A stretch of DNA of 63,837 bases, the filler included, from Welwitschia mirabilis (lineage: Eukaryota): the NCBI GenBank assembly GCA_051453625.1. It is 4 parts of one record of this genome, joined end to end, with 100 filler letters (N's around TTAATTAATTAA, not from the genome) between each part and the next. Parts side by side here need not be neighbours in the genome. Positions count along the whole stretch, not along the records: positions 19,750 to 41,636 come from JBOZIK010000001.1; 3 more parts are not named here. One strand, 5' to 3'. Below are positions 4,510-62,800 of the stretch, in pieces (the first letter of the stretch is position 1; every line of letters begins with the position of its first letter). Under the pieces are notes generated by a model. That model did not search any database and was not told the origin of the DNA. It worked only from the letters and a program-made list of their open reading frames with translations. The position numbers and the translations under genes were made by a program.

Positions 4510-6780
4510 GCAACTTTGTCAGAATTCTTAAGCGAGTGGAAAACTTTATGATTGTGAACCATGTGGTCTTGAATACTTTGGTAGGGTAAGAAGGCAGCTT
4601 GATTTAAGCGAACTGTAGAGGGGAGCAGAGGCTGCATCCTAGAAACCAAAACTTTTGAAATAATCTATAAATGACATTACAAACACCTATGGATCTGGAT
4701 TCTTTTAAATCCAAGGCATCCTTCTTTTTGGAAATCATAACAATGTTTGTGTTGTTCACTTCTTGGGGGATTCTCCCTTGCTTCAAAACCTCATCAAAGA
4801 CATTCTCAGTAAAGGACCTATTATCATATACTTCCAGCAGCCAACTGTTCTCAAGGAAGAATTGAGACCTCTTACCTCTTTTCACCTCCTTTTCTTAATA
4901 ATATGGGCTCTATGATCGAAGCACCACCTCCCCTTTACTTCTAAGGCCCAAAAATGTTCCCCTAATCATTGTTCTGAGATGTGGGCTTTGTTAATCCTCG
5001 ATAGGATTCTATTATCCAATACTCTTTTAGTAGACAAGGTGAACTCTACTTTACACAACTCTGAGTCAACCAGATTCACCTTTTCTGTGAATTTTTCAAA
5101 GTGATCTGCCCCTGCCAAGTTCCAAGGACCTCCTCCTTTCTTTTACAAGAAAATCTGGTTTGGTTAAAGTCATCAATGATGATGCAATTCTTCCCAAAAA
5201 TGTTTTCCTCAATTTCCCCCCATACCTATTGTTGAAGGGTTACATGTTGTGGCCAATAGAGTTTGGTTAAAGTTCTCTTTCTGTTTCAAAAAATTTGATA
5301 CCATCTATTAGTGAAAAAGGTAGTCATACCCCCTACTTGCCCTACACTACCATTAATCACTACATTCCATTCATTAGAAAAACTTCCAAATGATAAAATA
5401 TTACTGACCTTCATTTCCTACAAACATACCACTTTTGGATTGTACTTCATAATCATCTCTTTCAGAGAAGTGATTTTGGCCCACCCCTTACACCCTCTAT
5501 ATTCTAACGGATCACTATCATTTTTATACTTCTTTGAGTTTTTCCCTTAAAGTGTTCCGGGTTATTTGTGGCCCATCTGCTATATTTTCCTTTTGCTGCT
5601 CACCGAGCCTTGAGTCCTTCGCGGGCGCCTGACTCTTTGACTAGGATTTTCACTTTTTGAGGTATCATTTTGTTAACCCTATCCAATTAAGCTACTGGTT
5701 TCCTCCCACTCTTACCATTTTATCTCCAATTTTTTCATTCTTGTCTTGCTCCTTCTTTGGTTCCTCTTTCTTAATGTTGTCAGCTTTATTCTGTTTTGGC
5801 TGGGTCTTCATTTGCTTTGACTTCCACAATATTCATTTTGCCCCCTTACTCCTTACATGCTGGAAACCATCTTTGTCTTATTTTAAATCAACAGTTGTTT
5901 GTAGGGTGCCCAAACATGATGCACACTACACATGCTTCAATTCTGCACGACTCTTTTAAGTGCCCTTTTCTCCCGCACTTCCCACAACCTTGCTTTTTGA
6001 GCTTAGGGAAAAAGTGCAAGGAATGCATTAGTCGATTGGAGCCTTCACACAAGATAGGAATGTTCTTGTATTCCATCTTTACTTTATTGGTGCAATTCAA
6101 ATGAAAATTTTGAAACTCTAGTTTCTTTGGTAGCACTAAATTTACCAACGCACAAGATCTAAGCAAGACCATTCTTGTTCCACTGATTGTGACTGGGTAA
6201 AACTTTGTTAGGTTTCTGGGTTGCTTTGTCAGACATTCTCTAAATTCCTGATTTCAGAAGGTTAGACTAAAGCCCAGCAGCCTTATCTAGACATGAAGCT
6301 TTCTGAATATCTTGTCAAAATGTTTTCCTGGGGTCCGTCTGGGTGGGGCCGAAACCCTTGCCCCAAGCAACCATAGAGCTGTGAGCATGATTATCATTTA
6401 AAATCTCCTCATTCTCAAATTTGAAGAGTACAAGACCCTTCACTAATGCTGTGACTTTCATAGAACTGATTCCTGTCCATCTTATTGCCACTGACTTTCT
6501 AATGGCATCCTTATTAAGTGTTGGCCCAGCAGACACAAAACGCCTCACTAGGCTAAACTTAAATCTCTGCTTTGCTTTGACACAATACTCTGAAGAAACT
6601 TTAAAAACTCCCATCTTCTTAAAAGTACTTCAGATCTGGTTTCACCACCATTTGAAAATGCTAACTCAAAAGGCAGCAAAAGACCAATAAAAAAGAAAAC
6701 ATACCTTACCCATGCAAGCTGTGCTTTCAACCAAAAATCCTTGCCCAGAAGCCAAGATCAGAAAACTTCCCCAACTATCA
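4510..6780 (-). mobile_element. L1-clade LINE remnant (ORF1 with DUF4283-like region and zinc knuckles; ORF2 EN and RT N-terminus), truncated at the Sirevirus LTR
   Basis: Minus-strand frames: 6614-6315 (IRWTG...GLVLFKFENEE, DUF4283-like); 6172-5888 (CGKCGRKGHLKESC and CVVCIMFGHPTNNC); 4885-4510 (FFLENSWL, NNTNIVMISKK, RSIGVCNVIYR, NQAAFLP). Confidence 0.85.
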
Positions 6781-6988
6781 AGAACTTCAATTTGGAAATG
6801 TATTTGCATTTCCACACAACTTGCTATAAAACATCATCATCATTAGAAGTAATATCATAAAAGAGTACACAATACTAGCTGAAGTAGTAAATTTAGTTAC
6901 CTAAGCAATCCACTGAATCCTTCCCCAAGTCCTCAAAAAAGTAGTTAAAACAGTGTGCAGCACCAAAAGTCTAATAAACGTGGGGATA

Positions 6989-7380
6989 TGTAAGGATACT
7001 TGAATTAGCTATGTTAGGCCTCTCCTCTCAACCTCGTGCTAGCGGCAACATTTGCAGTGGCACTATCTATAACGATTTGTGATTAATCATAAAGGTATTA
7101 ATGTCACATTTCAAATTTAAAATCCTTAACTGACCATTTAAAATACTATTATATCCTTGTGCTACTCAATGTGTATGTAACATTTTGTGAATCAATCTTC
7201 TTGACTAGTATCCTTAATTGTGAATATAAATACTCTATATTCTTAATTCATCATCAGTATAACCCTCATCAGATCACTTAAGTGTCCTGACTAAATTCAT
7301 TCTCTCTATGTACTTATTTGTGTTCTCTTTCTTGGCTTTGATCTTAGTATGTATGCTTATATCATTTCCATTGAGTTACA
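6989..7380 (+). repeat. LTR-like direct repeat, copy 1 (partial diverged copy 2 at 9520-9672)
   Basis: TGTAA...TTACA termini and an internal TATAAATA. Bases 7096-7248 align with several substitutions to 9520-9672. Confidence 0.5.
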
Positions 7381-7431
7381 TGTAATATATTATCATGTAT
7401 TCTAGGTGAGATTAGACACATGATATTTTTA

Positions 7432-7863
7432 GAGTAGTTTGCCTCATTGAATCTAAAGGAGGGGCAGAACATAGTTACTTTTACATTCTCAACAAGAGTT
7501 TTTGGAAGTCAATAGGTTAATGATTGGATCTATCTGGAGATGGAACACAAAAATTATTGTACCAGATGTTAATGGCACAATTACTAAATCAAATGTTATG
7601 TTTTTGACTAATTTGTACATCTTGTTGGAAAGGACTGGACACAATCAAGTGTTGCATACCTTGTTTCTGCTATCAAGGAAAATGGCTATTAGTTGTTGTT
7701 CTTAAGTGCCCGTGCTATTGGGCAAGCATATCTTACAAGGTAGTTTCTTATTAATGTAAAATAGGACAACAAGAGTTTACTAGATGATCCATTTGTAATG
7801 TCTCTAGATGGCTTGTTTCCATCCTTGTATCATGAAGTTAAACAAAGAACTCCTCATGAATTC
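7432..7863 (+). pseudogene. Processed lipin / phosphatidate phosphatase (PAH, LNS2 domain) pseudogene, block 1
   Basis: Translates (with stops and shifts) as ASLNLKEGQNIVTFTFSTRVLGS...YLWRWNTKIIVPDVNGTITKSNV...LVGKDWTQS...IKENGY*LLFLSARAIGQAYLTR...[19 protein letters not shown]. This matches the plant PAH1/PAH2 C-LIP region with a decayed DVDGT motif, and no introns are present. Confidence 0.9.
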
Positions 7864-9201
7864 ATTAATGGAAAGAAGGCAACAGGAACATTTCATACCA
7901 TGCAATTATGAAAGAGAAATTCATAACTATGAGGGAATACCCCACCAGCATTAGGAATATTAGTAAAAAGTTATTCTTTCATAGGTTTAGATAAATTATC
8001 CATGTACAAATTCACACCTATAGAAGAAAATATTTTTGAATTAAAGATCACCAATGTTTTCCATTATGGATAATATAATTCAATAAAATATTGATGAAAA
8101 GCAATTCTGGGGCTTATTATTTTCTTAAAAACTTGGATTTGCTCATGTAGTGAATGCATATCTAATAAAGAAGAGCATCACTTTAGAAATAAATGCAACA
8201 AGGTTTAAAGAAGTTCAAGAGCCTAAATTGAAGAATGACCATCCATCAACAGTATCTTAGACAAGTTTACAATAAACCTGATCAAACTCTACTGGCATGT
8301 CAATGCATGAGGATATTTTCGGATTCTCAAGTTCTTCCAAGAAATGAAGAAAAACCTTCACAGAACACAAGCATAACATGCAATCAATGCCATCTATTTA
8401 GATGCAGTTAGTTTCCATTCAAATTTTGATGTTGGATATGGATATGAGATTGCTTTAGGGAAAATGAAAGAATCTCCTGCAATATTAACTTCTAATAGAC
8501 AAGGCTTCCCTATAATCAAATGTATTCTATGTTCATGCCTATTCAGGGGACATGTAGTTGCTAAATTAGTTCTTTGATGAATTCACAGAGAGTCAATACT
8601 TCAACTAGCAGATAAGAGTCAATGATAAAAAATGGTGGACAGTGCAGTTAGCAGACATAATTCTCTAGAGAGGTATGTCATTGGAGTGAAGATGTAATAA
8701 TGAAAATCCATGTTTTTGATGAAGATAGATGAAGAAGTAATCTCTTGCAGTCAAATTTATCCCTCGTTCTTCAAAGTTATCTAACTGAGAAACGTGGAGA
8801 TCAAACAGCTAAGAGAAACTAAAAGCACACTCTCAAGTTAATGGATTTTTTTTAAAATATTCTACCTGCCATAACATATTACAATTTTTTAAGAGGTAAC
8901 AAGACTTTAATAAGCGAAAAAGGAAAAGGCACAGTGGAGAAGAAGAACAATAGAAACACAACAATATCAGGTCAGAAATAGAAGAAGATACCATAACCAA
9001 AAAAAAAACATACATTAGAGGAGGCAATCAGAAGGAATACCACAGAGGATCAGAGGCATATTAGCAAGACACAAAGAAGAATACTATGGAGAGATAAGGC
9101 ATCCTTTGAAAGAGGAGTAGAAGACACAAAAGTGAAGATAGAGGAATTTAGAAAAAGAAGAAGTGGATTAAGAGGAAGAATACCCTATGTCAAAGAAAAG
9201 T

Positions 9202-19450: not shown

Positions 19451-19749
19451 CTCACTTAAGCAAAGACTTGTGTAAAATCCCATACTGGTAGAAAAAGGCA
19501 CAGCTTTAAAATCAAATAATTTTCAAGTACACAGAAAGATGATATGTAGAAAAAATAAAAGAGATTGGCCTCAATAAACACGTGTGAGATATGCCGCAGC
19601 CCTAGATTATTGATTCTTAATTCAAATAACACAAACCTTGCTTTCACTTNNNNNNNNNNNNNNNNNNNNNNNNNNNNNNNNNNNNNNNNNNNNTTAATTA
19701 ATTAANNNNNNNNNNNNNNNNNNNNNNNNNNNNNNNNNNNNNNNNNNNN

Positions 19750-22700
19750 AAGAATACTACAGTCTATCCAAAGGAAAAGAAGGAAAAAGACAGGGAATAT
19801 AACCCCTTTCAACACTTTAGTGAGGAAGAGCTCAAAGATACTCAGCAATCCTAGAATCCAATAAACATAGATGAGTCAAATGATGTTGAAGTTCAGATGA
19901 AAGGAAAACCCAATAATAGAATCCTCCGGAAGAGGAAACTACAGAAAACATGGCCAAGAGCTCCCAAGAAACCATTGAAGACACACTGAAAAAGGTTAAA
20001 GGGTATCCAGAAAGGGGCAAAAACAAACCTGATGGATTGCCTTACCTGGAATTGCAGGGGATTAGGGTCCTCCTACAAGAGAAAAACCCTAAGAGATCTG
20101 ATTAGTGAATTTAATATTAAAGTAGNNNNNNNNNNNNNNNNNNNNNNNNNNNNNNNNNNNNNNNNNNNNNNNNNNNNNNNNNNNNNNNNNNNNNNNNNNN
20201 NNNNNNNNNNNNNNNNNNNNNNNNNNNNNNNNNNNNNNNNNNNNNNNNNNNNNNNNNNNNNNNNNNNNNNNNNNNNNNNNNNNNNNNNNNNNNNNNNNNN
20301 NNNNNNNNNNNNNNNNNNNNNNNNNNNNNNNNNNNNNNNNNNNNNNNNNNNNNNNNNNNNNNNNNNNNNNNNNNNNNNNNNNNNNNNNNNNNNNNNNNNN
20401 NNNNNNNNNNNNNNNNNNNNNNNNNNNNNNNNNNNNNNNNNNNNNNNNNNNNNNNNNNNNNNNNNNNNNNNNNNNNNNNNNNNNNNNNNNNNNNNNNNNN
20501 NNNNNNNNNNNNNNNNNNNNNNNNNNNNNNNNNNNNNNNNNNNNNNNNNNNNNNNNNNNNNNNNNNNNNNNNNNNNNNNNNNNNNNNNNNNNNNNNNNNN
20601 NNNNNNNNNNNNNNNNNNNNNNNNNNNNNNNNNNNNNNNNNNNNNNNNNNNNNNNNNNNNNNNNNNNNNNNNNNNNNNNNNNNNNNNNNNNNNNNNNNNN
20701 NNNNNNNNNNNNNNNNNNNNNNNNNNNNNNNNNNNNNNNNNNNNNNNNNNNNNNNNNNNNNNNNNNNNNNNNNNNNNNNACAAAAATGCAAGATGGCATG
20801 AAATTAGAAAACCTTAAACAATAGTGGAATATCTTTACCTCTGCAACACAAGGAAACTTAGGAGGTCTCATAACCCTCGTGAATAAGGAGGCAGAATTAG
20901 TTAACAGCAGCAAACATCATCTAACTATCTATTTAAAGGAAGAAGGATGAACCATAACAAACATTTACAGCCCTTAGAACAACTCGACAAAGCCTCTATC
21001 TTAGAAGATCTTCAGAGGATAGTGGTGGATAAGACTAAGTGNNNNNNNNNNTGGGGGATTTTAATCAATGTCTACATTGCTAGGAGAAAACAAGGGGCGA
21101 AAATTGGAACAATAGAGGAGCTGCAATTCTTAGAGACTTTATGGTGCAGAATGCCCTTTCGGATGTACTGCCTATAGGGTGTAAATACACCTAGTCCAAT
21201 AGAAGGACGCGAGGCAACCAAGTAAGGTTCAAGATAGACTGAATACTCAACAGAAAAAATGTTGTAAATCTCCCAATTGAAGCTTGTGGGCTGAACAAAA
21301 TAGCCTCAGATCACTTATTAAATATAGAATAGGGGTAATAACCCCACCTAGAGCCTCTTTTCAAATGGAACACTATTAGATCACAAGGACAGAAATCAAA
21401 GCGCTAGTCGAAAAGATATGGAGTTAATATAATGACATTCACCCACTCACTTTTCTCTACGGAGGATTAAACACCCTTAAAGCACAAATGAAGGACTGGA
21501 GAAGGAAGGATAAGGAAAGATTTGAATTAAAAAAAGGACCTAGAGGAAGAGTTATAGAGAATTCAAACTGACCAAGAAGACGAAGGAGATTAGGACTACC
21601 TCCAAAGTAAGAAATACCGATGCCTCATAGAACTCCAGGAAATAAATGCAGATGAGGAAAATTACTAGAGGAAAAGATCAAGGATTAAGTGGCTTAAGGA
21701 GGGGGACAGACATACCAAGTTTTTCTTCCAGCAGACCAACTAGCACAAAGCAGATAACAAAATATGGAGGCTCATCATTAAGGAACAGATAGTCGAAGAT
21801 GAAGAGGACATAATGAAGAAAATTCAGACCTACCTCAAGAATACATGAGAGTGGGACAATATCACCCCTGACTTTATTCTAGAAGATAAGAGAATTTCTA
21901 TTAAGGATAACGCTAATCTAACTAAACCCCTAGGCAGAGAAGAAATTTAGTCAGCAGTGAGATCAATAAAGAATAATAGAGCTCTAGGGCCAGATGGTTA
22001 GCCAGTCGAGCTATTCAAGACTTACTTCCCTATTATAGAGGACGACCTTCATGATGTAATGCAGGATATCCTGAATGATAAACGCATCCCCAGGGAAATG
22101 AATAAAATTAGGGTTATCCTCATTTCCAAAAAATGGAATGCCAACAAACTAGAAGACTACAGAGCATTAGGCATCTGCAATGTTCTATACAGGAACTTTG
22201 TAAAAATAACAGTATGCCATATCGCCCCCTTGCTCCCCAAAGTGATCTTTGAGAACCAAGCTGGCTTCATCTGATCCAGGTACATTCAGGGCCAAATTAT
22301 CTTAATCCATGAAATTATTCATTCTATTAAAAAGTACAAATTTCCTTTAATTATTGCTAAATTAGACATAGCAAAGGCTTATGACTCTGTTAGCTAGCAA
22401 GCATTAGGTTGTATTCTTAGAAATACTAGATTTAACTTAGATATCATTAACTTATGGTTAGATATGCAAGATTATACTGAATTCAAAGTAGAAGTTAACA
22501 GCCATAGATCCAAGTCTTTTTTAGTAGGTCAAGGATGAAGGCAAGAGAACCCTTTATCCCCAAATCTTTTTCTATTTGTTATGAATCTCTTATAGGGATT
22601 TCTTAAAAGCAATGGAGTAATAGACATAAAAATAGGAAGTTAAATGTTTATTAACAATCACTATGTTAATGATATAATTATCATGATCAAAGCCTCCTGC

Positions 22701-25262
22701 CAAAAAGAAAGAGCCATCAAGAACTCCATGAATCTCTTTGCAGAAACCATGGGCCTTTGAACTGGAATAAATCTAGAATTCACATTGTGGGCAGAAGCAT
22801 TACCATATGGAGTGATATCACCAGAATGTTAAATATCAAAATGGGAGACCTTCAGGACATCTACTTGGGAATCCCGCTAGGGAATTGACACAAGAGCCTA
22901 ACTTGGAATTACATCCTCGAATCAATCCAGAGACGATGCAACACCTAGCAGAATAAATTTCTTTCTTCCAAAGCAAAGATCATTCTAGCAAATTCTTGCC
23001 TGATATCTTCTTTAAGATACATTACCTTCGTTATCCCTCCTGCCCTCGCCTCAAGAACATTATCGAAAAATCAATAAAATATTGAAGGATTTCATTTGCT
23101 CAAGAGGTAAAGATAGAAATCGCATTCACCTCTGCAAACGGGATATTATAGCTCGTTCTAAGGAGTCAGAAGTTTGGAGAGTTAAAAGGCCAGAAGATTG
23201 TCTTCTCATAGATGTACACCAAGTTCTCAAAAGACTATCCAAGGGAGGGCAGCCTTGGAGTGATCTTATAAATTACAAGTATCCTACTTGAAACAATGAA
23301 GAGAGGGAGTCTTATCTCAGGAAACACCTCTGCGAAGATAGAGGAAACTTGATGGAATTAAAAATTTGTAATGAAGACACCACTAAATAGATTCTTATCA
23401 AAACGTATGGGAAAAATGATGCTTGTAAAAATTTTTGGAAGGGGCAAATTTCATATAAGATTAAGATATTCTATTGGTTAAAGGAACGCAACCGAAGTCT
23501 TGTAAGGGACCAATTACTCAAGCGAGGCTTGCAGGTTGACTCCACCTGCACATGGAGCTCTAAATTAATGATAATTATGATGAGATATTCCAGCCACTGT
23601 AACGTATCTGAGACATGCAAAAAAGATGTGATTCGACTGACTCTGTGGTAGATTTGGCATACACACAATAAATTGATATTCAATAGTACCCCCTCCCATT
23701 CCTTATAAATACAGCTAAGAAGATTAAGTGGTCTCACTTGCAAATCAAGGCAGCTATGGGGACACCTCCAACTATTGAACTAACAGATCCTAGCTTGTTC
23801 GAAGGGTGCCTTGAGCTCTGGGATTAGGTGCAGGATTTAGAATGGAAAGCTCTCTCGCATAAGCTCAAAGGAGAACTGGAGACCAATATTACTACGTTTT
23901 ACAGAAGATGGAGAGGGCAAAGAACTACATTTAGGAGAATCTCCATTTAGATAATAAAAGGCTCTATTTCTCACCTCTTAGACATACCAGTGGCAGGGGA
24001 AATAATTCCCATTAGAAGAAGAGGGTAGTGGAAGGCCTCCCATTTCTTTTCAAGTAGTGCCGCAAAATTGCCTAGTGGCCATATCAGCCGTAAGGTGCTT
24101 ACACCCCCCTAGGGTTTAGAGGTTGAGATAATAGACCACTATTTCATATAATCCGAATGTTGTTTAAAATTGTTAGACCTACATTTTACCTTCCTCAAAG
24201 CTTTAGACCTAGGTCCTCAGGTTAACCTTCATCTCTTCTTTATTCAGGATTTTCAGACTTTACAACGCAAAGACTTAGCAAGATACTCAGGACTAATTAT
24301 GGCTCTCTAGAAGGCTACAAGAGACTAGAGGGCAAGTGAGGCCCCTTCCCCACCCCCCACCCCTCCCTTATTCCCCTTAGTGACATAACTCTCAGGAGAC
24401 TCCTTCCAAGGAAAATCGAAGAGGAGGGTTACAGCTGATGAACCTCTCATCCTGAGGGGGATTCTGAGTCGAGAAGTCCCCACTCTCAAAGAGGGGCAAC
24501 TCTGCCCTAGGAAGTTCAGACAGAAAAGGTGAATTTGCCCCCAAAGCAGGAAGAGATAGTTCAGGAAAATTCCCCAGCTGAGTCCCAAGAACAGGAGCAA
24601 CAGTTCCAAGGTCATGACTAAGAGGCCTCTGAAACAGAGGGTAGCCTTAATCACAATTAGGAGTCGAATTCGCCATCAGGTTTCTTCTTAGAAAAGAGAC
24701 ATCAAGAGCCTCATGAAGATATTGACATGGACCTTGTGAAAAGAGAAGTCTTGTTTGCTATAATCGATCATTTGAAAAGATGCCCTTTTGTGACTTTGGG
24801 AATCTCACACAGATCTCAACTACAAGCTATTAAGTCAAGTTATCAGAAGAAGGCACTCAAATTGCATCCAGACAAGAACCGGGTAGGAGCTGAGGAGTTC
24901 AAGGAAGTAAATCAAATGTTTGAGGTGTTAGTAGATAAAATGGGACAATTCTTGCTTAAGCACCATCATGGCAACTTCTTCCCGATTTGCAAAGGATATT
25001 AATCCCTTATCTTTTCTAGTTATCCTTAATTCAGTTTTAGTTTTTACTAGCTCTTACTTAATCATATTTATTAGGGGCACTATCGTCCCCAGTTTGGCCT
25101 TGTATACAGCAGGTTCCTGTGACTATAGTAAGATAGTTTTCTTTTTGCTAATCAGGTTCTTTTTCCTCTCAAGTCAAGGCGTTTTCACTCTCCTATGTGA
25201 ATTCTCTAGTTTAATATAATACCCGTTTCTCTCGGGGGAGGAAAAAAAAAAGAAAAAGAAAA
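19750..25262 (+). mobile_element. L1-clade LINE (ORF1 end, ORF2 EN-RT-zf-RVT plus C-terminal extension ending in a J-domain), 3' UTR and A-tail
   Basis: ORF2 start MDCLTWNCRGLG (20032); ASDH (~21303); RSRIKWLKEGDRHTKFF (~21680); ALGPDG; YRALGICNVLYR; KLDIAKAYDSVS; RQENPLSPNLF; YVND (~22660); YLGIPL; zf-RVT FWKGQISYKIKIFYW...LW*IWHTHNKLIF (23430-23680). A-rich tail at 25242-25262. Confidence 0.9.
24727..25002 (+). CDS. J-domain (DnaJ/Hsp40-type) coding segment inside the LINE 3' region, probably the C-terminus of ORF2
   Basis: CPFVTLGI...AIKSSYQKKALKLHPDKN..AEEFKEVNQMFEVLVD corresponds to J-domain helices I-III with HPD at 24865-24873. 91 stop-free codons, no intron. Confidence 0.85.
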   Translation: MDLVKREVLFAIIDHLKRCPFVTLGISHRSQLQAIKSSYQKKALKLHPDKNRVGAEEFKEVNQMFEVLVDKMGQFLLKHHHGNFFPICKGY

Positions 25263-28049
25263 TGAAGCATAGGATAAATCATTGTTTAATAAGTATTCAA
25301 TTTAAGGATGGTCAAAACCAATGAGCGATGCATCTAAAGACATAGATCATCTTTTTAGGTATGTAACTAAAAGAACAAGAAGCTTTGATATAAGGATATG
25401 TTCAAGCATGGCTTGTTACAAGCACTTTCACAAAATAATGCTTCATTTTATTTAAATAAATTTAGTTTAATAATAGAATCAATTCATAGTATTTTATGAA
25501 GATTTGTAAAGTTTGTTTACATACTACTATAATAGTATAAATTTTAGTATTTACAAATGTGATATTATATTGCATATGTAATAGCATTATGAAAATTGGT
25601 ATTTGATATTTTTTTAATGGCTAATAAATAATTCAAGGCTAGTTAATAAAAATAAATGTAATTAAGAGGAGGTAATGAGAATCAAGAAAAATATAACATA
25701 CAAAGATGGAAAACAAATTAGTGGCTATGAGTAGTGAACAATTAGTATCTTAATTAGTGAACAAAATTAATAAATAATTAATTAATATATAATTATAATC
25801 AAGATTAACTAAGTTATTAGTATATGGTATAATGAAATAAAATACACAAAAGTATCTCTAGAAATATCTAATGACAAAAGTATATGAGCATGGTCAAAGA
25901 GATGTAACATAAAGAAAGATGATAAGGCTTTGAAAAAGATGGGTAAAGAGATTATGTGAGAAAGATAAGTATGAAAAGATATTTCTAAAAAGGATAACAT
26001 ATGTAGAAAGTTCCCTTCCCCTCCCCCTCCCCCACCCCCCCAACAAAGTTTCAATATTCCAACTTTAATTCAACAATTTTCAATATTTTCAAAATTCCAG
26101 GTGAGAATGTAGAAGATACGAAACTAATATTTTACTAAAGATATAAAATATTTAAAGTTTAATTAATGGTAGACATTTAAAGGTCTAAAATATCTCCCCT
26201 TTCCAAGGCCTATGTATACCCATTCATCCCATTAACATAAACAACAAGACAAACTCCTAAGGTGGAACATCAAAGAAGAAGATCTTATATAAAGGTTATT
26301 TTATAGAACTATGTTAAATAATACCTATGTTATTTAGTAGATAACCTTATTATGTTACAAAAGACAATATTTCTTGTATAATGTAAATATTGTTATTGAT
26401 CTAAGGTTCTTGTAATAATAACTTTATTCCATTCGAAGTTAAAGACATCATAATATAATGTTATTTTCTCAGAGTTTCAATTATACTTATTAATGTTGAG
26501 TAGTCATATAAATGGATGAATGAAGATTCTAATTGCTACATGATGTAAACAAGTCAAAATCATCATTATAATGAGCTACCTATCTTCACCCATTTTCTTA
26601 TTACTAAAAATCTAAGAAGAATTCTTTTCTATATAAATATCCTTAACAAAAAACCGTCCGTTATTCCAACACAGTTAAAGCATTTCTTAAAGTCAACATA
26701 TTGTAGTGTACATGCAACCATTATAATGCCTTGTTATCAATTATAGAAAAGTTCCAAGTGACATTTTCCTTTGTTGTTAAGTATGTGTTAACTTACTTGG
26801 AAACCTTATTTATATGCCTTCCAAGGTTATACTTATAGTAAAAGTATTATACAAGAGGTTTAAACTTGTGTATAGTTGAAAATATGACCACCATTCACCT
26901 CTATGGTTTCATTGGTAGAGACAAGCTTCCACATACAATGTAAAGCATGACTAATGGAGTTGTTAATAGTGGTATATATTTAGTGGTAATTATGGTTAAG
27001 ATTTTTATTATGATAATAGCATCTATTTTTGGGTCCCTCATTGACCTTTCTGGTTACCTCTATGAGAAGAGGCTCCCACATAGTACATAAAGTGTAACGA
27101 AATAAAGACGAAATTAGTGGAGAGATTCCTACTATTAAGGTTATGGTATTCTTTGTTGTTCTAACCTTATGTGAAACCTCGTTCTTAAGTCATGACTTCT
27201 ACAACTCAAAAATGGATATCATTAATCAGTCATATTACTCACTATTTTCTTCTTGCTAATAATATATTATTGTATTTATATTCGTTCCTTAATCCTGACA
27301 TGAGTCATTATTAGAATGTGATGTGGCTAATACTAATTCTCATGTACTAAAGTTAGGAATATCTATAGGCAGTTCAAGGCTACATTATTGAACAATAACA
27401 ATGATGTAATTTCTATGTTGACATCATTTCTTCTTTAAGTGTGAGATTATGGGTGTTTTCTTATAATTATTATATTTATTATGTTACAAAGGATAATGGA
27501 AGTAATGGTTGAAAGTGTATTTGATTCTTATATTTAATTTGTTAATGTTACTTAACACAAAATGATTGCTAAAGATATTTGTTTGATTATTAAGATGGAT
27601 TTTGAAAATAATAATCAAGATAATAATTTTAACAAACAATGTAATCAGTATGAGTACATAATATGACTTGATCAATTTATTATTCACTAAGTATGCGATA
27701 GTACTCTTTTTGAATTATTGTGCTTCCCTAAGAACTAAATGTAATTCTAATGATTGAATGGCTTTTGTATTAATTTTTAAGCAAAATTTAAATTGTACTT
27801 ATATTTAGGGGTTTAATTAAGTTGGGTGTATTAAAACAAACATGCACCTTGGAGTAAATTTCTATAAAAATTTAATAAATGGCACTAGACTAATGACCAA
27901 AATAAAAAGCAAAAAAGGAGTACCAACCATGTAACTTTGAATGAAACAGCAACAACCAAATCAAGGAGAAATTCAGTAGAAAAATAATGTATTGTGACAT
28001 CTTTAAGAAAAGTGGATATCACAAAACTAATATTATAAAGCTTAACAGT

Positions 28050-31592: not shown

Positions 31593-32332
31593 AAGTTGGT
31601 ATCTTGACCAAGTTGGTATGTTGACCAGCGGGTTATGACGTCACTGGACAAGAAGCGGAACTGGTCAACGCTAAAATTTCCTTGTGGGAATCGCCAATTC
31701 CGGAACCCTAAAAATCATCGAAATTGAGTTTGAGTTGAAGAAACGATTTAATACGAGAGCTGTAATAAAAGGCAAGTCACTTGCCGGCCGAGGTAGGTCA
31801 ATGTTCATCAGACTCCAGTATCCCACTCTGAAACATCCGAAAATGCGTCGCGGACTGAAATTCAAATTCTTGGTATTTGTGGTTGTGGCAAAATCCGCAG
31901 GCCAACAACAAACTTCTGAAAAAAATATTAATAAGGAGATGCACGGCAGGGAGCGTTCGGGTTAGGCGAGAGGAGATACGAGATATATTGTTTGCAGAGA
32001 CACCACATTTGTTGGTTGGATTGGATGCCTAACACTCTCTCTCTATGAAAGAGATGCGGAAGCAAAATTAATTGAGACATTTACTGGTAATCCGCTGAAT
32101 CTCGATACGTGGCAAGGTCTTTCCTGCGGGCCATTAACGCCACAACTGCACGCAGGCAGTGGCTTGTTCGCTTGGACTTGCAGAAGGAAGGAGAGACAAG
32201 AAACGGAATGCAAGTGAAGGGAGGAGACTTAACTTTGGAGTGGAATTGGGTTATTGCAGGTTTTTAAGAGACAACGCCAAGTGAAAGTGAAGTGCAGTGC
32301 AGTAAGTAAAAGTTGATGCGGAGGAGGCGGAG
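31593..32332 (+). promoter_or_regulatory. Putative promoter / 5' UTR of the BODYGUARD-like gene (start of CpG-retaining island)
   Basis: Abrupt rise in GC and CpG near 31620. 17-bp tandem duplication 31593-31626; TGACGTCA at 31636-31643; ABRE-type ACGTGGC at 32107-32113. The TSS was not determined. Confidence 0.45.
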
Positions 32333-32930
32333 ATGGCATGGCAGAAGAGGTTGCGGGATGGTTTTCTGAAAGTCTTAGTGGGATTTCTGAGCTTTTTGGT
32401 GTTCGGCTTCTTCGATATTTTGGACCCCGTTCTGTGCATCGTTTATAAGATTGTTGATTATGTTGTTGAAGCTGAATGGAAGGCCTGTTACTGTTATTCT
32501 TCTTCTTATCAGCCGAGGAAAACATCTGTTAATGGCGATGAGGATTTCTGCAGCAGACGCATTGTTCTGGACTCTGCAGACACAAAAATTGTCTGTCATT
32601 GTCTTCCCGAGGACGGAGAAATGTCGGAGACGCTTTTCCTCAGGAAGTCTGTTGTGCGGGAAATTGTTAAATTGTTTTTGAGGAGGAGGGAAGCAAAGAT
32701 TTTCCCTGCGTTTACTGTGCAACCCGCCATTGTTGAAGGCCTGCACAAATCTAATGGTTATAATCAGAAGCAGAAGAAGAGTAAGAGAAGGGAGAAGAAT
32801 GGCGGTGATAGATTTGCAGAAGAGATTGTTTGTAGAGAACCGCGGTGGTCCGACTGTAACTGCGACACCTGCGCTTCCTGGCGATCGAATTCCAAGGAGA
32901 GTCTCTTCTGCAAGATCCAGGGCATTTCTG
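32333..32930 (+). CDS. BDG: BODYGUARD-like alpha/beta-hydrolase (putative lysophospholipase, cuticle formation), exon 1
   Basis: FLSFLVFGFFDILDPVLCIVYKIVDYVVEAEWKACYC...SETLF...RWSDCNCDTCASW is the characteristic BDG N-terminal region. Phase-1 donor G|GTGGGT. Confidence 0.92.
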
Positions 32931-33744
32931 GTGGGTTTACTTGCATTTATCGTATTTCGTTGCTTATAAAATTTTCAGAAAACTTAAGATACATCAAATC
33001 GACTAAAGACGTTGCTAAAAATTCAAGACCAATACTCTGATAATTGAGAAACTCAGAGCTAACACGATAACCATGCTTCCATTTTTGTCTTCTGGAACTT
33101 ATTTCTTCAACTTTGGTTTTCGATGGCTTGACTCAGTAAATGTATTTCTCAGAACCGTCCGAAATTCTCTTTATTTTGCTAAACTTTGTTTTCCGTTAGT
33201 TATGAAAAGCTGCCCGTGCAAGCTTCAGAGCTTTGCATCCGCTTTCAAAGTCTGGGCATCGTTCGTTGCTTCAAAAATATTTGCTTGAAAAGATCAGAAG
33301 CTGTCTGAAGATACGTTCAGATTGCCGAAATAACGACACCTTCAGTTGCTTACAGTCTTAATCTAAGCCGAAAGCCAATTCCAACTTTCCAGTGATCATC
33401 CCAGGGAAGAAAAACTGAAAGTCGTGTAACTGATATGTGATAAGGTCTTCTTCTGCTTCGCTCAAAACCCTAATCCGCCATCTCAGTCTTTTACATCCAC
33501 CTCCGACTAAGCCTGTAAATGCCAACACTCAAAACATTTGGTTAAGCCCTCTGATGCGTCTCCTGAGAACTCTCCGCTTTGAACACGTAAATGAAAACTG
33601 TAAGCTAATTACTCATATCTGAGCCTGCAAATCACGCTTGAAAAACTAAAGAAAACATTTGATTGCACTCTCATTTCTCCATTTACTATTTCCGCTCTAA
33701 ATTTGACGCAGGATAATCTCATTTTTCATCAAAATTCTTTACAG

Positions 33745-34091
33745 GGAATGCGAAGGAGATCACAGAAGGCGCGACGGACGTGCTGTTCATCCACGGCTTC
33801 ATTTCATCGTCAACATTTTGGACGGAAACGCTCTTTCCAAACTTCTCGGAGGACGCCAAAAGCAGTTACAGGTTAATAGCCGTCGATCTGCTGGGCTTCG
33901 GCCGCAGCCCTAAACCGCGTGACTCCATGTACACGCTGGACGAACACGTGGACATGCTAGTGACGTCAGTGCTGAGGCCTCACCGAATCAGATCCTTCCA
34001 CGTCGTCGCCCACTCCCTCGGCTGCATTATCGCCCTCGCGCTCGCCGCCCGCTTCCCCGACGCCGTCAAATCTCTAACGCTTGTCGCTCCG
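33745..34091 (+). CDS. BDG: BODYGUARD-like hydrolase, exon 2
   Basis: Acceptor TTTACAG| keeps frame. DVLFIHGFISSSTFWTETLFPNF, AVDLLGFGRSPKP, nucleophile motif VAHSLG; donor CCG|GTAATG. Confidence 0.95.
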
Positions 34092-34211
34092 GTAATGTAC
34101 GCCCATCCCTTAAATTTTTTCCCAAATTTTTAAAAACAAAATTATAATGAAAAAAGTGTGAAATTAAATGAAATTGAAATTGAAATTGAAATTGAGATGA
34201 ACGAAACGCAG

Positions 34212-34417
34212 CCATATTTTCCAGTGCCGGAAGAGCACAAGGGAAGGGGGAGTGGGTACGTGTTGAGACAGCTGGCGCCGAGGAAAGTGTGGCCGTTGAT
34301 TGCGTTGGGGGCGTCGATGGCGTCGTGGTATGAGCACGTGAGTCGCACCATCTGTCTCCTCATCTGCAAACACCATCGCTTCTGGGACTCCCTCTTCCGC
34401 TTCCTCACCTTCAATAG
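34212..34417 (+). CDS. BDG: BODYGUARD-like hydrolase, exon 3
   Basis: Acceptor GCAG|; PYFPVP...LAPRKVWPLIALGASMASWYEHVSRTICLLICKHHRFW; phase-2 donor AG|GTAATT. Confidence 0.93.
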
Positions 34418-35269
34418 GTAATTCTCTTGAGAGTTCTTTCTTTATTTAAATTATTTTTAGATTTTTTAAAATTTTAAAATTAGTTTGACTATTATATATA
34501 ATATGCTAAATAACTTACATTAGCTAAAATAATTTCCATGATCGTATAGCGTTTACACCCACAAATGATGTTTTCCATTTATAAAAAATTGTAATATTTA
34601 GTGATTACATGTTCTCAAGGAAAAATCTCTCAATCAATCATGTAAATTCAAAAACTTTATGACAGATAAAATAAATTTAAAAAATTCAAGAATATTGTAT
34701 TATGAGTTTTTAAGCTAAGAAACAGTTGAATATTTAAAAAATGTTAAATAAAAAAAGTTAGAAATCCCATGTAAGGCTTCTAAAATGTTTTTTTGAGTAA
34801 AGCTAACCTTATATTAATCAAAATGGAAGAGCATTACAGCAAAGCTAAAAAGAATTACATAGAGAAAGACAGTATCTTCAAAGGGAAATAGTGAAAATGA
34901 AGGGATTAGCCATGAGAGTCTTTCTAAGTTCTATAGTGTGAAGTGTCTTGGAGTTCAAAGCCCATAAAATTTTAAAAATTAAAATATACTCATTTTTAAA
35001 AATATATTTGCTAACCATCAAGTCAAGTAAATCAATGTCATGTGAAAGTGCTATAATTCTTATGAATTAACTTCTTTTATATAAAATGTATTCACATGTT
35101 TAAAAAATTTTTAGAACATATACTAAAATTCTCTTACACATTTACATTAATATTCTAGGAGAATTTCAAACTTCAAACTTTTAGTGTTATACCTCTCTTT
35201 GAATATATAGCCATTATGATCTTCCAAATTAATGGTTTAACTACACTTATAGCCTCATAAAATGTTAAG

Positions 35270-35900
35270 GCATTTAAAGGTTCAAAACCTCCTAAATGGA
35301 GTATGAGTATTCCAATCCTTACACTATGATATTAATTTTAAAACTTCTAGTGACCAAGCTTCACCTAAGAGCACAACTACTATCATTGCCTACATGAATA
35401 ATTTAATCTTGCTAAGGTCTTATAATGTGCTAAGTGGAGCATCCAAAGATTCAAGTTCATGAGCTTCTAAATGGAAAATAAGTGTCCGACCTATTCGACT
35501 TACATGCCATTAGTATTTATTTTCTATTGATATTCTACTTATAATAATGAATTAGTTATGTAAGATTTTATTCTTTAATAAATGTTAAATCTTTTATAAT
35601 TTTAAATTATAATTTTATTAGTATTTTTAGAGTGTTATAACCTATAGGAAATTACCTAATAACTAAGCTTTTTCTAGCATTGTAGTTCTTTATGCATTTT
35701 AACTTTATTTTTATTTTAGGGCTATTAGAATTTGAGACTTTGCACGGTGATGCCTAATTGAGAGTATAGTCACCATTTTCATTTAAATAAATGATTTAAT
35801 TATGCCTAGGGCCTTATAGTGTACAAAATGGTGCACGTAAAGGTCTAAACTTATGACTTCTCGTATGGAGGACAACTATCCCAAATTAGTACTATGCAAT
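35270..35900 (-). mobile_element. Three decayed tRNA-like SINE heads in BDG intron 3 (same family at 14222-14285 + and 18315-18372 -)
   Basis: Shared core resembling GGAYACTCATCCTCCAT-n-AGRAGGTCATGGGTT at ~35275-35328, ~35448-35508 and ~35840-35897. Confidence 0.55.
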
Positions 35901-36335
35901 AACAAATTAAGTTGAATTTAAAAAATAAATAGTTACTTAACAATCCTTAACAATTAAGTAAGGATAAGAATAATAATAGTATTATTTCAACATTATAAAC
36001 ATTTGAATTTTTAATTTTAAGAATTGGAGTTATATTTTAATGGTAGAGCGGCGCTCTCTTGACTTTGTGATTGTGAGGTCAATTTTATAATATAAATTTC
36101 TGATTTTAAAGTTACTTCCTCTATTTTTTAAATATTAGAATCTATTTATAAAGGGGTAAGTCCCTTCTCAAAAAGAAAAGCCAAATACTCAATTAATAAT
36201 TTTTGGATGTGTTACTGAAAATAGATAATTAAGGTCAATAGCTTGGTTGGATGAAACTGATGAAGCTATGCCTTGAGCAACCCTTTTGTAAACTTAATTA
36301 TTTAATTAAGAAATTGCAATGTACATCTGTTTTAG

Positions 36336-36657
36336 GGTAAGGACATATCTGATAGACGGATTCATGTGCCACACGCACCATGCGGCCTGGCACACTCTGC
36401 ACAACGTCATCTGCGGCACGGCCACCAGGATGGAGGACATGATAGACCAAGTGCGGAGCATGCGGTGCAGCGTGAGCATATACCACGGCCTGGACGACGA
36501 GCTGTTGCCGGCAAGCTGCAGCAGAGCCCTCAAGTCCAGAATAGCACACGCTCGTCTCAAGATCATCCCCAACACCGACCACCTCACCATCGTTGTCCGC
36601 AGGCAACACACCTTCGCCAAAGAGCTGGAGCACATTTGGAAACATTCCAACCGTTAA
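36336..36657 (+). CDS. BDG: BODYGUARD-like hydrolase, exon 4
   Basis: Acceptor TTTTAG|; YLIDGFMCHTHHAAWHTLHNVICG...IYHGLDDELLP...DHLTIV (catalytic Asp/His region); TAA at 36655-36657. Spliced CDS is 1473 nt, 490 aa. Confidence 0.95.
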
Positions 36658-37948: not shown

Positions 37949-40900
37949 TGTTAAGTTGATGTGGCTCAAACTTGAGCCCACATCCCAAAGGCGTCCCTCA
38001 CCAAGGTGGCGCCTCGAAAGGGTCANNNNNNNNNNNNNNNNNNNNNNNNNNNNNNNNNNNNNNNNNNNNNNNNNNNNNNNNNNNNNNNNNNNNNNNNNNN
38101 NNNNNNNNNNNNNNNNNNNNNNNNNGGCCTGTTCGACCCTTCACCTATTGTAAGTATGTCAAGTTTGAGCCAAGGTGGAGATTGTTAAGTTGATGTGGCT
38201 CACACTTGAGCCCACATCCCAAAGGCGTCCCTCACCAAGGTGGCACCTCGAAAGGGTCATCTGCCCATCGTTTCTGGCTGAAACCGATGGGCATATTGCA
38301 TTATAAATAAGGTAAAACCTTATGCCAGAGAGAGAGAAATTGACTGATTGGCCAACAAGTGGTATCAAAGCAGGTTGGTCGTGTGGGCAGGCTTCATTTG
38401 CAGGCAGTTTCATTTGCAGGAAGCTCTTTTTGCTGTCAGTATCATGTTGACAGTATCATGCAACTCGCGGACGATCTAGGCCTTCTCAACAGCGTTGTCG
38501 AAACTGGCTTGCTTGTCAATCCGCCTTCCCATCCGTTAAGTGCCTCTTAAGCGCCTCAGTCGCCCCCGCGCTCAGCTGTCGGTCCTTCATTCGTTGCTGC
38601 ACAAACTGGCCCTCACAATCTGGCCCTTTCCTGCCCCTTTCGTGCCTAAGTGCGAGCGCCGTTTGTTCAGCTCCTAGGTGTTTTCCTTCCTGCAACTCAC
38701 TTCGTTCTTTCCAGCCGCTGCATTCTTTTTCGCCGCTTCGTTCTTTATAGCCACTGCGTTCTTTTTTCGCCATTTCGTTCTTTCCAGCCGCTGCGTTCTT
38801 TTTCCGCTGCTTCGTTCTTTCCAGCTGCGCGCTGTGCAAATCCTAGGCATTTCCTGTCAGCAACTCATCGTCGTTTCTTACCTATAGCTCGTCATCGTCG
38901 GCAGCCTCTTGGAAGGCAATCGGGAATACGGTGTTCTTGAAGGATTCTAAGCCTGAAGAAAACTGCATGCGTTTTGGGATAGAGGAAAGAAGTGCTGGAA
39001 GACCTTTCGTAGCTTCTTGTGAGTCTGCCCTCGCCGCCTCCTACGCCCGTCTCTCCGCACCTCCCGTCTCCACTTCTCATCACGGTGTGCTTGCTACGGT
39101 TCCTTGCCTCGTCTGCAACATCTGCAACGTCACCTGCACGCCCATCAGAAACAAAACATAGGCAAAAGACACTATTTCAAGTTTAGATCTATAATTTATT
39201 TTGGAGGTTTTATTTGTTTATTTTTAGTCATAAGAGTATAATTACTATCCATTTAATGACACTAGCTATTATAGTGGTTCTTATGGTTTGCCTTATAGTA
39301 ACCTTTGATTGTTACATTTAGGTTTACAATGACTTGACTATAGATTATTTTAAAATGGCTTTACTAAATACTCTTAATAAATGTTATAGATTCTATTCAA
39401 TTCATCTAAAATATTTAAGTTTTATTTTACTCCCTAAATTACATAATNNNNNNNNNNNNNNNNNNNNNNNNNNNNNNNNNNNNNNNNNNNNNNNNNNNNN
39501 NNNNNNNNNNNNNNNNNNNNNNNNNNNNNNNNNNNNNNNNNNNNNNNTTTCTGGCTGAAACCGATGGGCATATTGCATTATAAATAAGGTAAAAACCTTA
39601 CGCCAGAGGGAGAAGAAGATAGTGTATTATGAGAGAAATTGACTGATTGGCCAACAAGTGGTACCAGAGCAGTTTGGCCCTGTGGGCAGGCTTCATTTGC
39701 AGGTAGTTTCATTTGCAGGAAACTCTTATTTGCCATCAGTATCATGCTGACAGTATCATGCAACTCGCGGACGATCTAGGCCTTCTCAACAGCGTTGTCG
39801 AAACTGGCTCGCTTCTCAATCTATCTTCCCATCCGTTAAGCACCTCTCAAGTGCCTCAGACACCCTCGCGCTCATCTGTCGGTCCTCCATTTGTTGCTGC
39901 ATAAATTGGCCCTCACAATCTAGCCCTTTTCGGCTCCTTTCGTGCCTAATCGCCAGCGCTGTTTGTTCAGCTCCTAGGCATTTTCCTTTATGTAACTCGA
40001 TGTCATATTTTTTTTGCCGCTGCGTTCTTTTTCTGCTACTTCGTTTTTTCCAGCTACGCACTATGCAACTCCTAGGCATTTCCTACTGATAACTAGTCAT
40101 CGTTCCTTACCTGTAGCTCATCATTGTCAGCAGCCTCTTGAAAGGCGGTCGGGAATACGGTGTTCTTGAAGGATTCTAAGCCTGAAGAAAACTGCATGTG
40201 TTTTGGGATAGAGGAAAGAAGCGCTGGAAGACCTTTCGTAGCTTCCTGTGCATCTGTCCTCAATGCCTCCTATGCCCATCTCTCTGCGCCTCCCGTCTGC
40301 GCTTCTCATCACGGTTCGCTTGCTACGGTTCCTTACCTCGTCTGCAACGTCTGCAACATCACCTGTGCGCCCATTAGAAATAAAACATAGGCAGAAGATA
40401 CTATTTCAAGTTTAGATCTATAATTTATTGTGGAGGCTTATTTGTATATTTTTAATCATAAGAGTATAATTACTACCCATTTAATGACACTAGCTATTAT
40501 AATGATTCTTATGGTTTGCCTTATAGTAACCTTTGGTTGTTACATTTAGGTTTACAGTGACTTGACTATAGATTATAGATATATGAGATTTTAGTTTTAG
40601 TACTTTTATTGCNNNNNNNNNNNNNNNNNNNNNNNNNNNNNNNNNNNNNNNNNNNNNNNNNNNNNNNNNNNNNNNNNNNNNNNNNNNNNNNNNNNNNNNN
40701 NNNNNNNNNNNNNNNNNNNNNNNNNNNNNNNNNNNNNNNNNNNNNNNNNNNNNNNNNNNNNNNNNNNNNNNNNNNNNNNNNNNNNNNNNNNNNNNNNNNN
40801 NNNNNNNNNNNNNNNNNNNNNNNNNNNNNNNNNNNNNNNNNNNNNNNNNNNNNNNNNNNNNNNNNNNNNNNNNNNNNNNNNNNNNNNNNNNNNNNNNNNN

Positions 40901-41636: not shown

Positions 41637-41735
41637 NNNNNNNNNNNNNNNNNNNNNNNNNNNNNNNNNNNNNNNNNNNNTTAATTAATTAANNNNNNNN
41701 NNNNNNNNNNNNNNNNNNNNNNNNNNNNNNNNNNN

Positions 41736-41736
41736 N

Positions 41737-62700: not shown

Positions 62701-62800
62701 NNNNNNNNNNNNNNNNNNNNNNNNNNNNNNNNNNNNNNNNNNNNTTAATTAATTAANNNNNNNNNNNNNNNNNNNNNNNNNNNNNNNNNNNNNNNNNNNN

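Follow-up and report, generated by a model that had tools for sequence, protein, structure and literature searches.

A J-domain between the reverse transcriptase gene and the poly(A) tail of a decayed L1-type LINE of Welwitschia mirabilis

Overview

We analysed a window of 63,837 nucleotides (the whole stretch of DNA, filler included) from the Welwitschia mirabilis assembly GCA_051453625.1, and found a canonical Hsp40-type J-domain between the reverse transcriptase (RT) gene and the poly(A) tail of a dead plant LINE. This poly(A) also marks the end of a multi-copy repeat of which the J segment is a part. On balance, we give about an even chance to the reading that the locus is a copy of an old plant L1-type LINE subfamily, in which the 3' region past the ORF2 stop carries the J-domain cassette as a part of the element. 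The cassette can be read as a short independent frame (ATG at 24727), not as a demonstrable extension of ORF2. As to its origin, an extension of ORF2, a separate ORF and a passenger are each possible.

Architecture of the LINE

The features of the element, all on the plus strand, are as follows.

19750-20031 (+): upstream of the ORF2 start, probably inter-ORF sequence or the end of ORF1; the contig begins at 19750
20032-20125 (+): ORF2 start and first residues, candidate APE-type endonuclease (Exo_endo_phos E-value 0.18; tblastn E-value 0.014)
21594-22838 (+): reverse transcriptase domain, decayed (RVT_1, E-value 6.1e-15, 55.9 bits; 9 homologues)
22757-23056 (+): ORF2 continuation in a shifted frame
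23391-23651 (+): zf-RVT zinc-binding domain of ORF2 (PF13966, E-value 1.7e-9, 38.6 bits)
23652-23958 (+): ORF2 tail, with a double stop TAATAA (23952-23957) overlapping AATAAA (23953-23958)
23959-24726 (+): spacer, free of domains and of any significant open-frame remnant (depth 60-603)
24727-25002 (+): J-domain frame, ATG to TAA, 91 codons, open upstream to 24661 (PF00226; depth 755-1007)
25003-25241 (+): T-rich 3' untranslated region common to paralogous copies (X1 record 5; depth 169/211)
25242-25262 (+): A-rich tail (19 A of 21), where the repeat gives way to unique flank (depth beyond 2.0/6.2)

The 5' end of the LINE is cut by a joiner (N44-TTAATTAATTAA-N44, 19650-19749), and the remaining sequence holds no candidate target-site duplication longer than 8 nt. 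About 31-45 residues of the endonuclease region are readable before an N run (20126-20779); residues 1-31 of the homologue P0154 align to the ORF2 start by tblastn with 38.7% identity over this short alignment. RVT_1 and zf-RVT (E-value 2.1e-7) share one read-through frame (20781-23651), all nine RT homologues (9/9) align to 21594-22838, and identity to the best of them is 32-33%. The RT matches plant proteins carrying PF03372, PF00078, PF13966 and PF13456. Nine in-frame stops interrupt the RT core (21681-22754), which nevertheless retains a significant open-frame remnant (9 stops versus 36 and 35, P < 0.0002). Downstream of it, tblastn alignments of P0152 and P0159 run in frame 2 at 22757-23056 and in frame 3 upstream, so ORF2 has undergone indels, and indel variants occur in contigs at 22762 and 23042-23064.

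A non-LTR RT and zf-RVT, a hallmark of plant L1 elements, are thus both present, and a poly(A) stands at the boundary to unique DNA as in L1 elements (depth at 25237-25391, 2.0/6.2 in X1/X5, the contig sets described below). Pfam searches found no RNase H remnant. Contig depth falls 4-6 fold at the double stop and AATAAA (23952-23958), from 690/1036 to 167/157 (X1/X5), and because these signals coincide with the drop the double stop is probably the natural end of ORF2. No Rfam family matched 19750-26500 at an E-value threshold of 0.1, and a search for notable internal repeats returned none. Another L1-type LINE fragment, which carries no J-domain, lies elsewhere in the window (4604-6629, minus strand; 42% identity over 52 RT residues).

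Identity and conservation of the J-domain

The open frame at 24661-25002 (+; 113 codons) matched the Pfam DnaJ profile PF00226 in a profile search (E-value 6.4e-13) with 49 bits, well above the curated cut-off of 27.8 bits, over residues 44-93 (approximately nt 24790-24939); in the read-through frame the DnaJ score was 46 bits. As the preliminary description had proposed, the domain keeps an intact HPD tripeptide (24865-24873) and lies on the same strand as ORF2, RVT_1 and zf-RVT also being on the plus strand. In an alignment of 32 sequences it retains 5/5 invariant columns (G25, H47, P48, D49 and L68). The closest solved J-domains are of class A/B (2och, dnj-12, E-value 6.7e-10; next DNAJA1 and Sis1). 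The frame stops at 25000-25002, 14 codons past the domain, and 239 nt separate this stop from the A-tail, in agreement with the roughly 240 nt given before.

There are no stops in the 113 codons of the J frame, against 9 in 358 for the RT core; at the RT-core rate 2.8 would be expected, and a hand calculation gives P(0) ~0.06. DnaJ scores 46-49 bits here versus 78-106 in five intact J proteins, RVT_1 55.9 bits versus 85-128 in five homologues, and zf-RVT 32-39 bits versus 64-66 in two homologues. By this measure J appears to have kept about as much of its profile score as domains under selection, a soft argument since profile scores vary among intact J-domains.

The region between ORF2 and the J-domain

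The J open frame lies ~1.1 kb downstream of zf-RVT and in another frame in this copy (position mod 3 = 1 for J, 0 for ORF2), so that J is not an added domain in frame with ORF2 here. The preliminary description had read the J frame upstream through an E/Q/S-rich linker as an extension of ORF2, and had taken the ancestral product to be an EN-RT-zf-linker-J polyprotein. The data do not bear this out. Shuffle tests found no significant open-frame remnant in the spacer and linker (P = 0.15, 0.61 and 0.33): the linker was indistinguishable from non-coding DNA (P = 0.61), and P = 0.33 was obtained for spacer plus linker with one frame switch allowed. No Pfam family was detected in the three frames of 23600-24727, and the double stop lies between zf-RVT and J. 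The earlier remark that each interrupting stop is one C>T step away from a sense codon carries no evidential value because it is true of every TAA, TAG or TGA. No A-tract was found between ORF2 and J (23652-24726). The spacer includes a C-rich tract at ~24330-24375, and its E/Q/S-rich frame-1 stretch spans 24512-24726.

Contig depth in two related plants

We compared the locus with DNA contigs of two related plants, A and B (X1/X5), retaining contigs with a likeness of at least 80% and summing their depths, a sum that by the method's own statement does not equal copy number. Depth (X1/X5) was 395-933/550-1036 over the C-terminal part of ORF2 (23067-23996), 85-315/60-219 over the spacer (23997-24461), 281-325/230-603 over the linker (24462-24771), and 1007/989 and 888/755 over the J block (24772-25081). 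Exact-match contigs had a depth of 4.6-6.8, so that the J block stands at ~150-200 times their depth in both organisms, and depth between the RT and the A-tail was always above the single-copy level. A J depth of 755-1007, compared with 4.6-6.8 for exact matches and 2-6 in the flank, therefore places J in a multi-copy repeat ending at the poly(A). It also speaks against the one-off alternatives raised earlier, a single transduction or an adjacent retrocopy, and against a host exon, J being multi-copy in both organisms with no near-identical host DnaJ among the 475 protein hits described below.

Because both plants contain many repeats of the J segment, the segment probably moved together with the element; we infer from depth alone that RT and J are linked in other copies. 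Depth over J is 3-10 times that over the spacer, which could reflect conservation or a separate, more abundant J-bearing repeat. Among diverged paralogue contigs, X1 record 5 covers linker, J and UTR (24443-25217, 147 differences), X5 records 11 and 12 likewise extend across linker, J and UTR, and X1 record 6 covers 24708-25125 with 543 unaligned letters upstream of 24708. In records 5 and 11 likeness breaks off at 24443-24445, and 49 letters past this point are unaligned. Four X1 contigs (24.1 of a depth of 71) and three X5 contigs (20.2 of 51.2) carry a variant with 1 nt inserted behind 24442. Among the listed loose ends of the DNA runs, all of them at or before 23066, no sharp common junction is apparent, and none of the 16 contigs listed from more than 26,000 pieces bridges zf-RVT to J. 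No RNA data set was listed as containing the stretch. Two RNA runs gave 106 and 22 reads, nearly all less than 90% alike, which indicates neither expression nor silence of this copy; in run X14, 4 reads came from an expressed J relative and matched only 24772-24836.

Searches for relatives

Using the J frame as a query, an exhaustive phmmer search returned 475 hits with an E-value of at most 0.001. The best match (59 bits, ~32-59% identity) is a protein with six J repeats. Among the best 10 of the 475 hits there was no RT fusion, only ordinary or multi-J proteins, and 10 hits chosen for naming came from scattered taxa that indicate no donor. Conversely, PF00226 was present in 0/9 RT homologues. 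Word searches of protein libraries with the J frame matched nothing of similar or greater length, and neither they nor phmmer found a close host DnaJ relative of the J segment, and J queries in the ESM Atlas retrieved generic J clusters only. No second copy of the LINE or of J was found in the window (blastn, tblastn), and no family member elsewhere in protein libraries or in metagenome, genome and viral contigs. Two candidate loci from a 20-mer scan (L001 and L002) were chance matches, sharing just those 20 bases.

Origin of the cassette

Under the reading that we weigh as about even, the present copy would be old and methylation-decayed, and a master copy would have taken up the J-domain portion of a class A/B-like host Hsp40, from its transcript or its gene, by read-through or by template switching during reverse transcription. 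Since priming of L1-type elements starts at the poly(A) and additional 3' sequence is tolerated, each later retrotransposition may have copied the cassette as well. If translated in active copies, it would give a minimal J-protein stimulating host Hsp70 near the LINE ribonucleoprotein (RNP). That the cassette was ever under selection is possible, though we lean slightly against it; alternatively it would be a neutral passenger. A stronger version, which we regard as somewhat unlikely, is that the LINE family encodes its own J co-chaperone, as the last part of ORF2p or in a third, small ORF, selected while the family amplified to the order of at least 100 copies. Such a protein might recruit Hsp70 for RT folding or RNP assembly, or act as a decoy against J-protein-dependent silencing of the MBD5/6-SILENZIO type, a pathway described from Arabidopsis in the excerpted text of PMC8616336.

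A single EN-RT-zf-linker-J polyprotein, in which a C-terminal J module of ORF2p would recruit Hsp70 in cis so that the RT or RNP could be folded or remodelled, would account for the shared strand, the single poly(A) unit and the multi-copy state. ORF2 is itself frame-shifted, so that in a dead copy a difference of frame does not settle the matter, and the insertion variant behind 24442 alters how the spacer and J frames relate to each other. With 8 stops in 252 codons, the best spacer frame resembles the RT core (9 in 358), and in the insect element TRAS a helicase has been added beyond a spacer of over 300 aa (PMC4686597, in the text excerpted). Against it stand the three non-significant shuffle tests, the empty Pfam result in every spacer frame, the double stop and AATAAA at the depth step, and the lack of J among the 9 RT homologues and of RT among the best 10 J hits; we consider it improbable.

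Alternatively, the J unit could form a family separate from the LINE, a poly(A) retrocopy or SINE-like element that arose from a host DnaJ mRNA and was mobilised in trans; at this locus it would then have come to adjoin the LINE 3' UTR by chance, or through a single template switch that produced a chimera. The depth of J over that of the spacer directly upstream (60-315) points this way, as do the two paralogue contigs that lose likeness at 24443-24445, the unaligned letters of X1 record 6, and a frame that ends soon after J, with a T-rich, UTR-like stretch and poly(A) behind it, much like an mRNA 3' end. Yet 23652-24443 shows neither an A-tail nor a target-site structure belonging to the LINE itself, depth is alike on both sides of the dip at 24307-24461 (219-315 versus 230-281), and no common 5' junction appears at the support of the listed loose ends (at least 27 contigs). 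In addition, the J-domain of host class A/B proteins is N-terminal, for which reason a 3'-anchored retrocopy would not normally end just past it. This explanation is unlikely in our view. Least credible, to a degree that leaves it hardly any weight, is a single-copy host feature beside the LINE (a DnaJ gene exon, a one-off 3' transduction or a lone processed pseudogene). The AATAAA at 23953-23958 could be a weak signal that was read through, and the X14 reads attest an expressed J relative, but the J-block depth in both organisms, the ~80% alike paralogous contigs spanning J, the missing internal A-tail and the lack of a near-identical host protein all speak against it.

Comparison with known systems

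Plant L1-clade LINEs have an APE-RT-zf-RVT organisation, some with a C-terminal archaeal-type RNase H; the present element likewise has RVT_1 and zf-RVT in one frame followed by poly(A), but it lacks an RNase H remnant and carries J 1.1 kb after zf-RVT in another frame. Non-LINE sequence between a LINE body and its terminal poly(A) arises in L1 3' transduction and in template-switch chimeric retrocopies, and a non-LINE segment occupies the same position here; unlike in a 3' transduction, an internal A-tail is missing, and rather than being confined to a single insertion the segment occurs in multiple copies in both organisms. With the polyomavirus T antigen, whose J-domain is N-terminal and proven functional, the element shares a canonical HPD J-domain on a selfish replicating element, known here from sequence alone.

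In the excerpted texts of PMC5203782 and PMC4686597, RNase H in plant LINEs is a known domain gain at the ORF2 C-terminus; PMC4686597 further indicates that this end tolerates foreign domains. ORF2 proteins of LINEs are known to have acquired few foreign domains, RNase H in plants and a viral helicase in moths. Insect TRAS/R1 LINEs, with a C-terminal tobamovirus-like SF1 helicase, resemble the present element in having a foreign domain after a complete LINE domain set, behind a spacer without detectable similarity (more than 300 aa in TRAS, ~360 codons here; PMC4686597, excerpted text). In TRAS the helicase shares the ORF2 frame and is conserved throughout Lepidoptera, whereas J is off-frame in this copy and its conservation is suggested by depth. 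A literature search of titles and the opening parts of abstracts found no description of a J-domain in a LINE, and nothing joining a DnaJ domain, ORF2 and a retrotransposon.

If the cassette was selected, this would be a retrotransposon bringing its own Hsp70 adaptor, and the chaperone dependence of target-primed reverse transcription would become directly testable. If it was a passenger, the locus would still be a record of how a plant LINE multiplied a fragment of a host gene to many copies.

LINE body and J-domain segment

The window contains three N44-TTAATTAATTAA-N44 joiners (19650-19749, 41637-41736 and 62701-62800) carrying stops in six frames. It is therefore plant DNA in the form of concatenated contigs, so that features on opposite sides of a joiner need not be linked, and the contig carrying the LINE and the J-domain starts at 19750. 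Reading 20781-23651 (+) as a single frame, with stops as X, we detected RVT_1 (Pfam, E 6.1e-15, 55.9 bits) and zf-RVT (E 2.1e-7, or 1.7e-9 when taken alone). RT homologues aligned to 21594-22838 (9 of the 9 found), with a best identity of 32-33% and with sources including Pinus taeda and Tanacetum. A putative endonuclease was readable only in the first residues past the ATG at 20032 (E 0.18 with Pfam, 0.014 with tblastn), positions 20126-20779 being N. ORF2 is internally frame-shifted, 22757-23056 aligning to homologues in a different frame, and frame 0 (that of ORF2) terminates in TAATAA (23952-23957), overlapping AATAAA.

The preliminary description had placed a J-domain with an intact HPD 3' of the RT and zf-RVT, on the same strand and ahead of the A-tail, and the profile searches bear this out. 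The open frame 24661-25002 (+) matched the Pfam DnaJ profile (E 6.4e-13; 49 bits, the cut-off being 27.8). HPD is intact at 24865-24873, and an alignment of 32 J sequences shows each of its five invariant columns preserved in the frame. Its best solved relatives are class A/B J-domains (dnj-12, E 6.7e-10, then DNAJA1 and Sis1). The stop at 25000-25002 is followed by a T-rich stretch and then by the A-tail (25242-25262), and the cassette reads as a short frame that opens with an ATG of its own (24727).

Multi-copy status of the J segment

We surveyed depth with contigs at least 80% alike, taken from a single DNA run of organism A (X1) and a single one of organism B (X5).

Summed contig depth along the element (X1 / X5); summed depth is not copy number.
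21517-23066, RT bins: 1461-5874 / 1725-8343
23067-23996, ORF2 C-terminal part: 395-933 / 550-1036
23997-24151: 167 / 157
24152-24306: 315 / 219
24307-24461: 85 / 60
24462-24616: 281 / 230
24617-24771: 325 / 603
24772-24926, J block: 1007 / 989
24927-25081, J block: 888 / 755
25082-25236: 169 / 211
25237-25391, A-tail and flank: 2.0 / 6.2

Contigs matching this copy exactly (records 4, 7, 10 and 13) had depths of 4.6-6.8, against 755-1007 in the J block. At 150-200 times the exact-match depth in both organisms, the J segment is not private to this locus. An exon present in single copy is thereby ruled out, as are an isolated retrocopy and a one-off transduction, the two counter-cases named in the preliminary description, and a single-copy feature of any kind is barely credible. 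Diverged contigs bridge linker, J and 3' UTR (X1 record 5 over 24443-25217, with 147 differences and 7 gaps); others cover 24708-25125 (X1 record 6, 87 differences), 24445-24843 (X5 record 11) and 24552-25049 (X5 record 12). The A-tail marks the exact end of the repeat, which makes the J segment the 3' portion of a retroposed family; X5 record 13 is identical over 25099-25698, so organism B carries the same insertion. Beyond the unique flank, the AT-rich stretch 25392-25700 returns to multi-copy depth (78-231 in X1 and X5) and probably belongs to a different repeat family.

Depth falls 4-6 fold in the bin directly after the TAATAA, and the two together form the pattern expected where a conserved coding region ends. 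Transitions account for most differences between copies: in X1 they occupy 1319 of 1665 places, 884 of them being C>T or G>A, a bias that fits decay through cytosine methylation. The RT motif contains an in-frame TAG (22394-22396) whose last position is read as G in about a quarter of the contig depth (22396; 906 of 3733, X1), so the TAG is either common to most copies or has repeatedly arisen at a CHG site.

Source and maintenance of the J-domain

A phmmer search of the J frame against 1.84 billion representatives gave 475 matches at E <= 0.001, the best at 59 bits, with identities of 29-59% over about 50 residues. No near-identical host DnaJ was found among these representatives. The best 10 of the 475 matches are all ordinary or multi-J proteins, none fused to an RT. 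The protein libraries evidently lack this genus, given that relatives of even the abundant RT reach no more than 32-33% identity there, and the absence of a LINE-J protein from them weighs little. In the RNA run X14, four reads matched only 24772-24836, their flanks running on as related but different J coding sequence; judged by sequence, they represent an expressed J relative and not this copy, and this relative is a possible donor lineage.

Three indirect hints, none of them a selection test, suggest that the J-domain was maintained. The J block is covered 3-5 times as deeply as the linker and 3' UTR that flank it, and to the same depth as the ORF2 C-terminal part, as if subfamilies had diverged in the flanks but remained similar in J. 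J also retains about half of the typical profile score (46-49 bits, against 78-106 in five intact J proteins), like the selected domains RVT_1 (55.9 bits, against 85-128 in five homologues) and zf-RVT (32-39 bits, against 64-66 in two homologues). Finally, the 113 codons of the J frame contain no stop, where the RT-core rate predicts 2.8 (P ~0.06, hand calculation).

Relation of the J frame to ORF2 and alternative explanations

The preliminary description had proposed an ancestral ORF2 protein continuing through the linker into J as one EN-RT-zf-linker-J polyprotein. In this copy the two frames differ, ORF2 being in phase 0 and J in phase 1 (position mod 3), a difference that is not decisive alone because ORF2 has internal frame shifts. 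No Pfam family was detected in three frames of 23600-24727. Comparing stop counts with shuffled sequence, we found no open-frame remnant in 23687-24442 (best frame 8 stops against 16 and 18, P = 0.15), in 24443-24726 (P = 0.61), or across both regions with one frame switch permitted (P = 0.33). The same comparison gave 9 stops against 36 and 35 for the RT core of this dead copy (P < 0.0002), and for the J block one stop, its own terminator (P = 0.027). This copy thus lends the fusion no support. An extra base behind 24442 in four X1 and three X5 contigs alters the frame relation between spacer and J and keeps the fusion reading alive. We consider a true ORF2-J fusion quite improbable.

A separate J retrocopy family, merely joined to the LINE here, is an alternative that we regard as rather unlikely; a more abundant independent J repeat would also account for the depth peak. 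The most likely account, which we hold with middling confidence, is a LINE subfamily with a J-domain cassette in its 3' region: the J-domain part of a host Hsp40 gene would have been captured there once, and the cassette would then have been copied with each round of the element.

Neighbouring features

1160-2312, 41074-41574 and 51601-52653 (+), Ty1/copia fragments (RVT_2, E 3.6e-44 and 4.8e-10; Pol beta-barrel domain, E 3.5e-25)
4604-6629 (-), second L1-type LINE fragment (weak DUF4283 ORF1 match, E 0.0079)
32306-36657 (+), host gene, apparently intron-containing, with an alpha/beta-hydrolase exon (Abhydrolase_1, E 1.5e-27 at 33717-34133)

The RT piece of the second LINE is 42% identical to the RT of the J-bearing LINE over 52 residues, and no J-like sequence was found near this fragment. 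The open frames 38451-38750 and 39751-40089 (+) resemble each other and lie 1300 nt apart, in DNA of raised G+C content (0.41), which suggests a direct duplication of about 1.3 kb.

Comparison with known LINEs and J-proteins

Literature searches found no J-domain within a LINE. According to excerpts of the sources, plant L1 ORF2 gained an RNase H (PMC5203782, PMC4686597), insect TRAS elements gained a viral helicase placed after a spacer of >300 aa, and the ORF2 C-terminus tolerates foreign domains (both PMC4686597). The J-domain at this LINE is a real observation; the fusion architecture and a function are putative. As the Arabidopsis J-protein SILENZIO works with MBD5/6 in transposon silencing (excerpt of PMC8616336), a decoy role against silencing may, speculatively and by analogy, be suggested as an alternative for the LINE J-domain.
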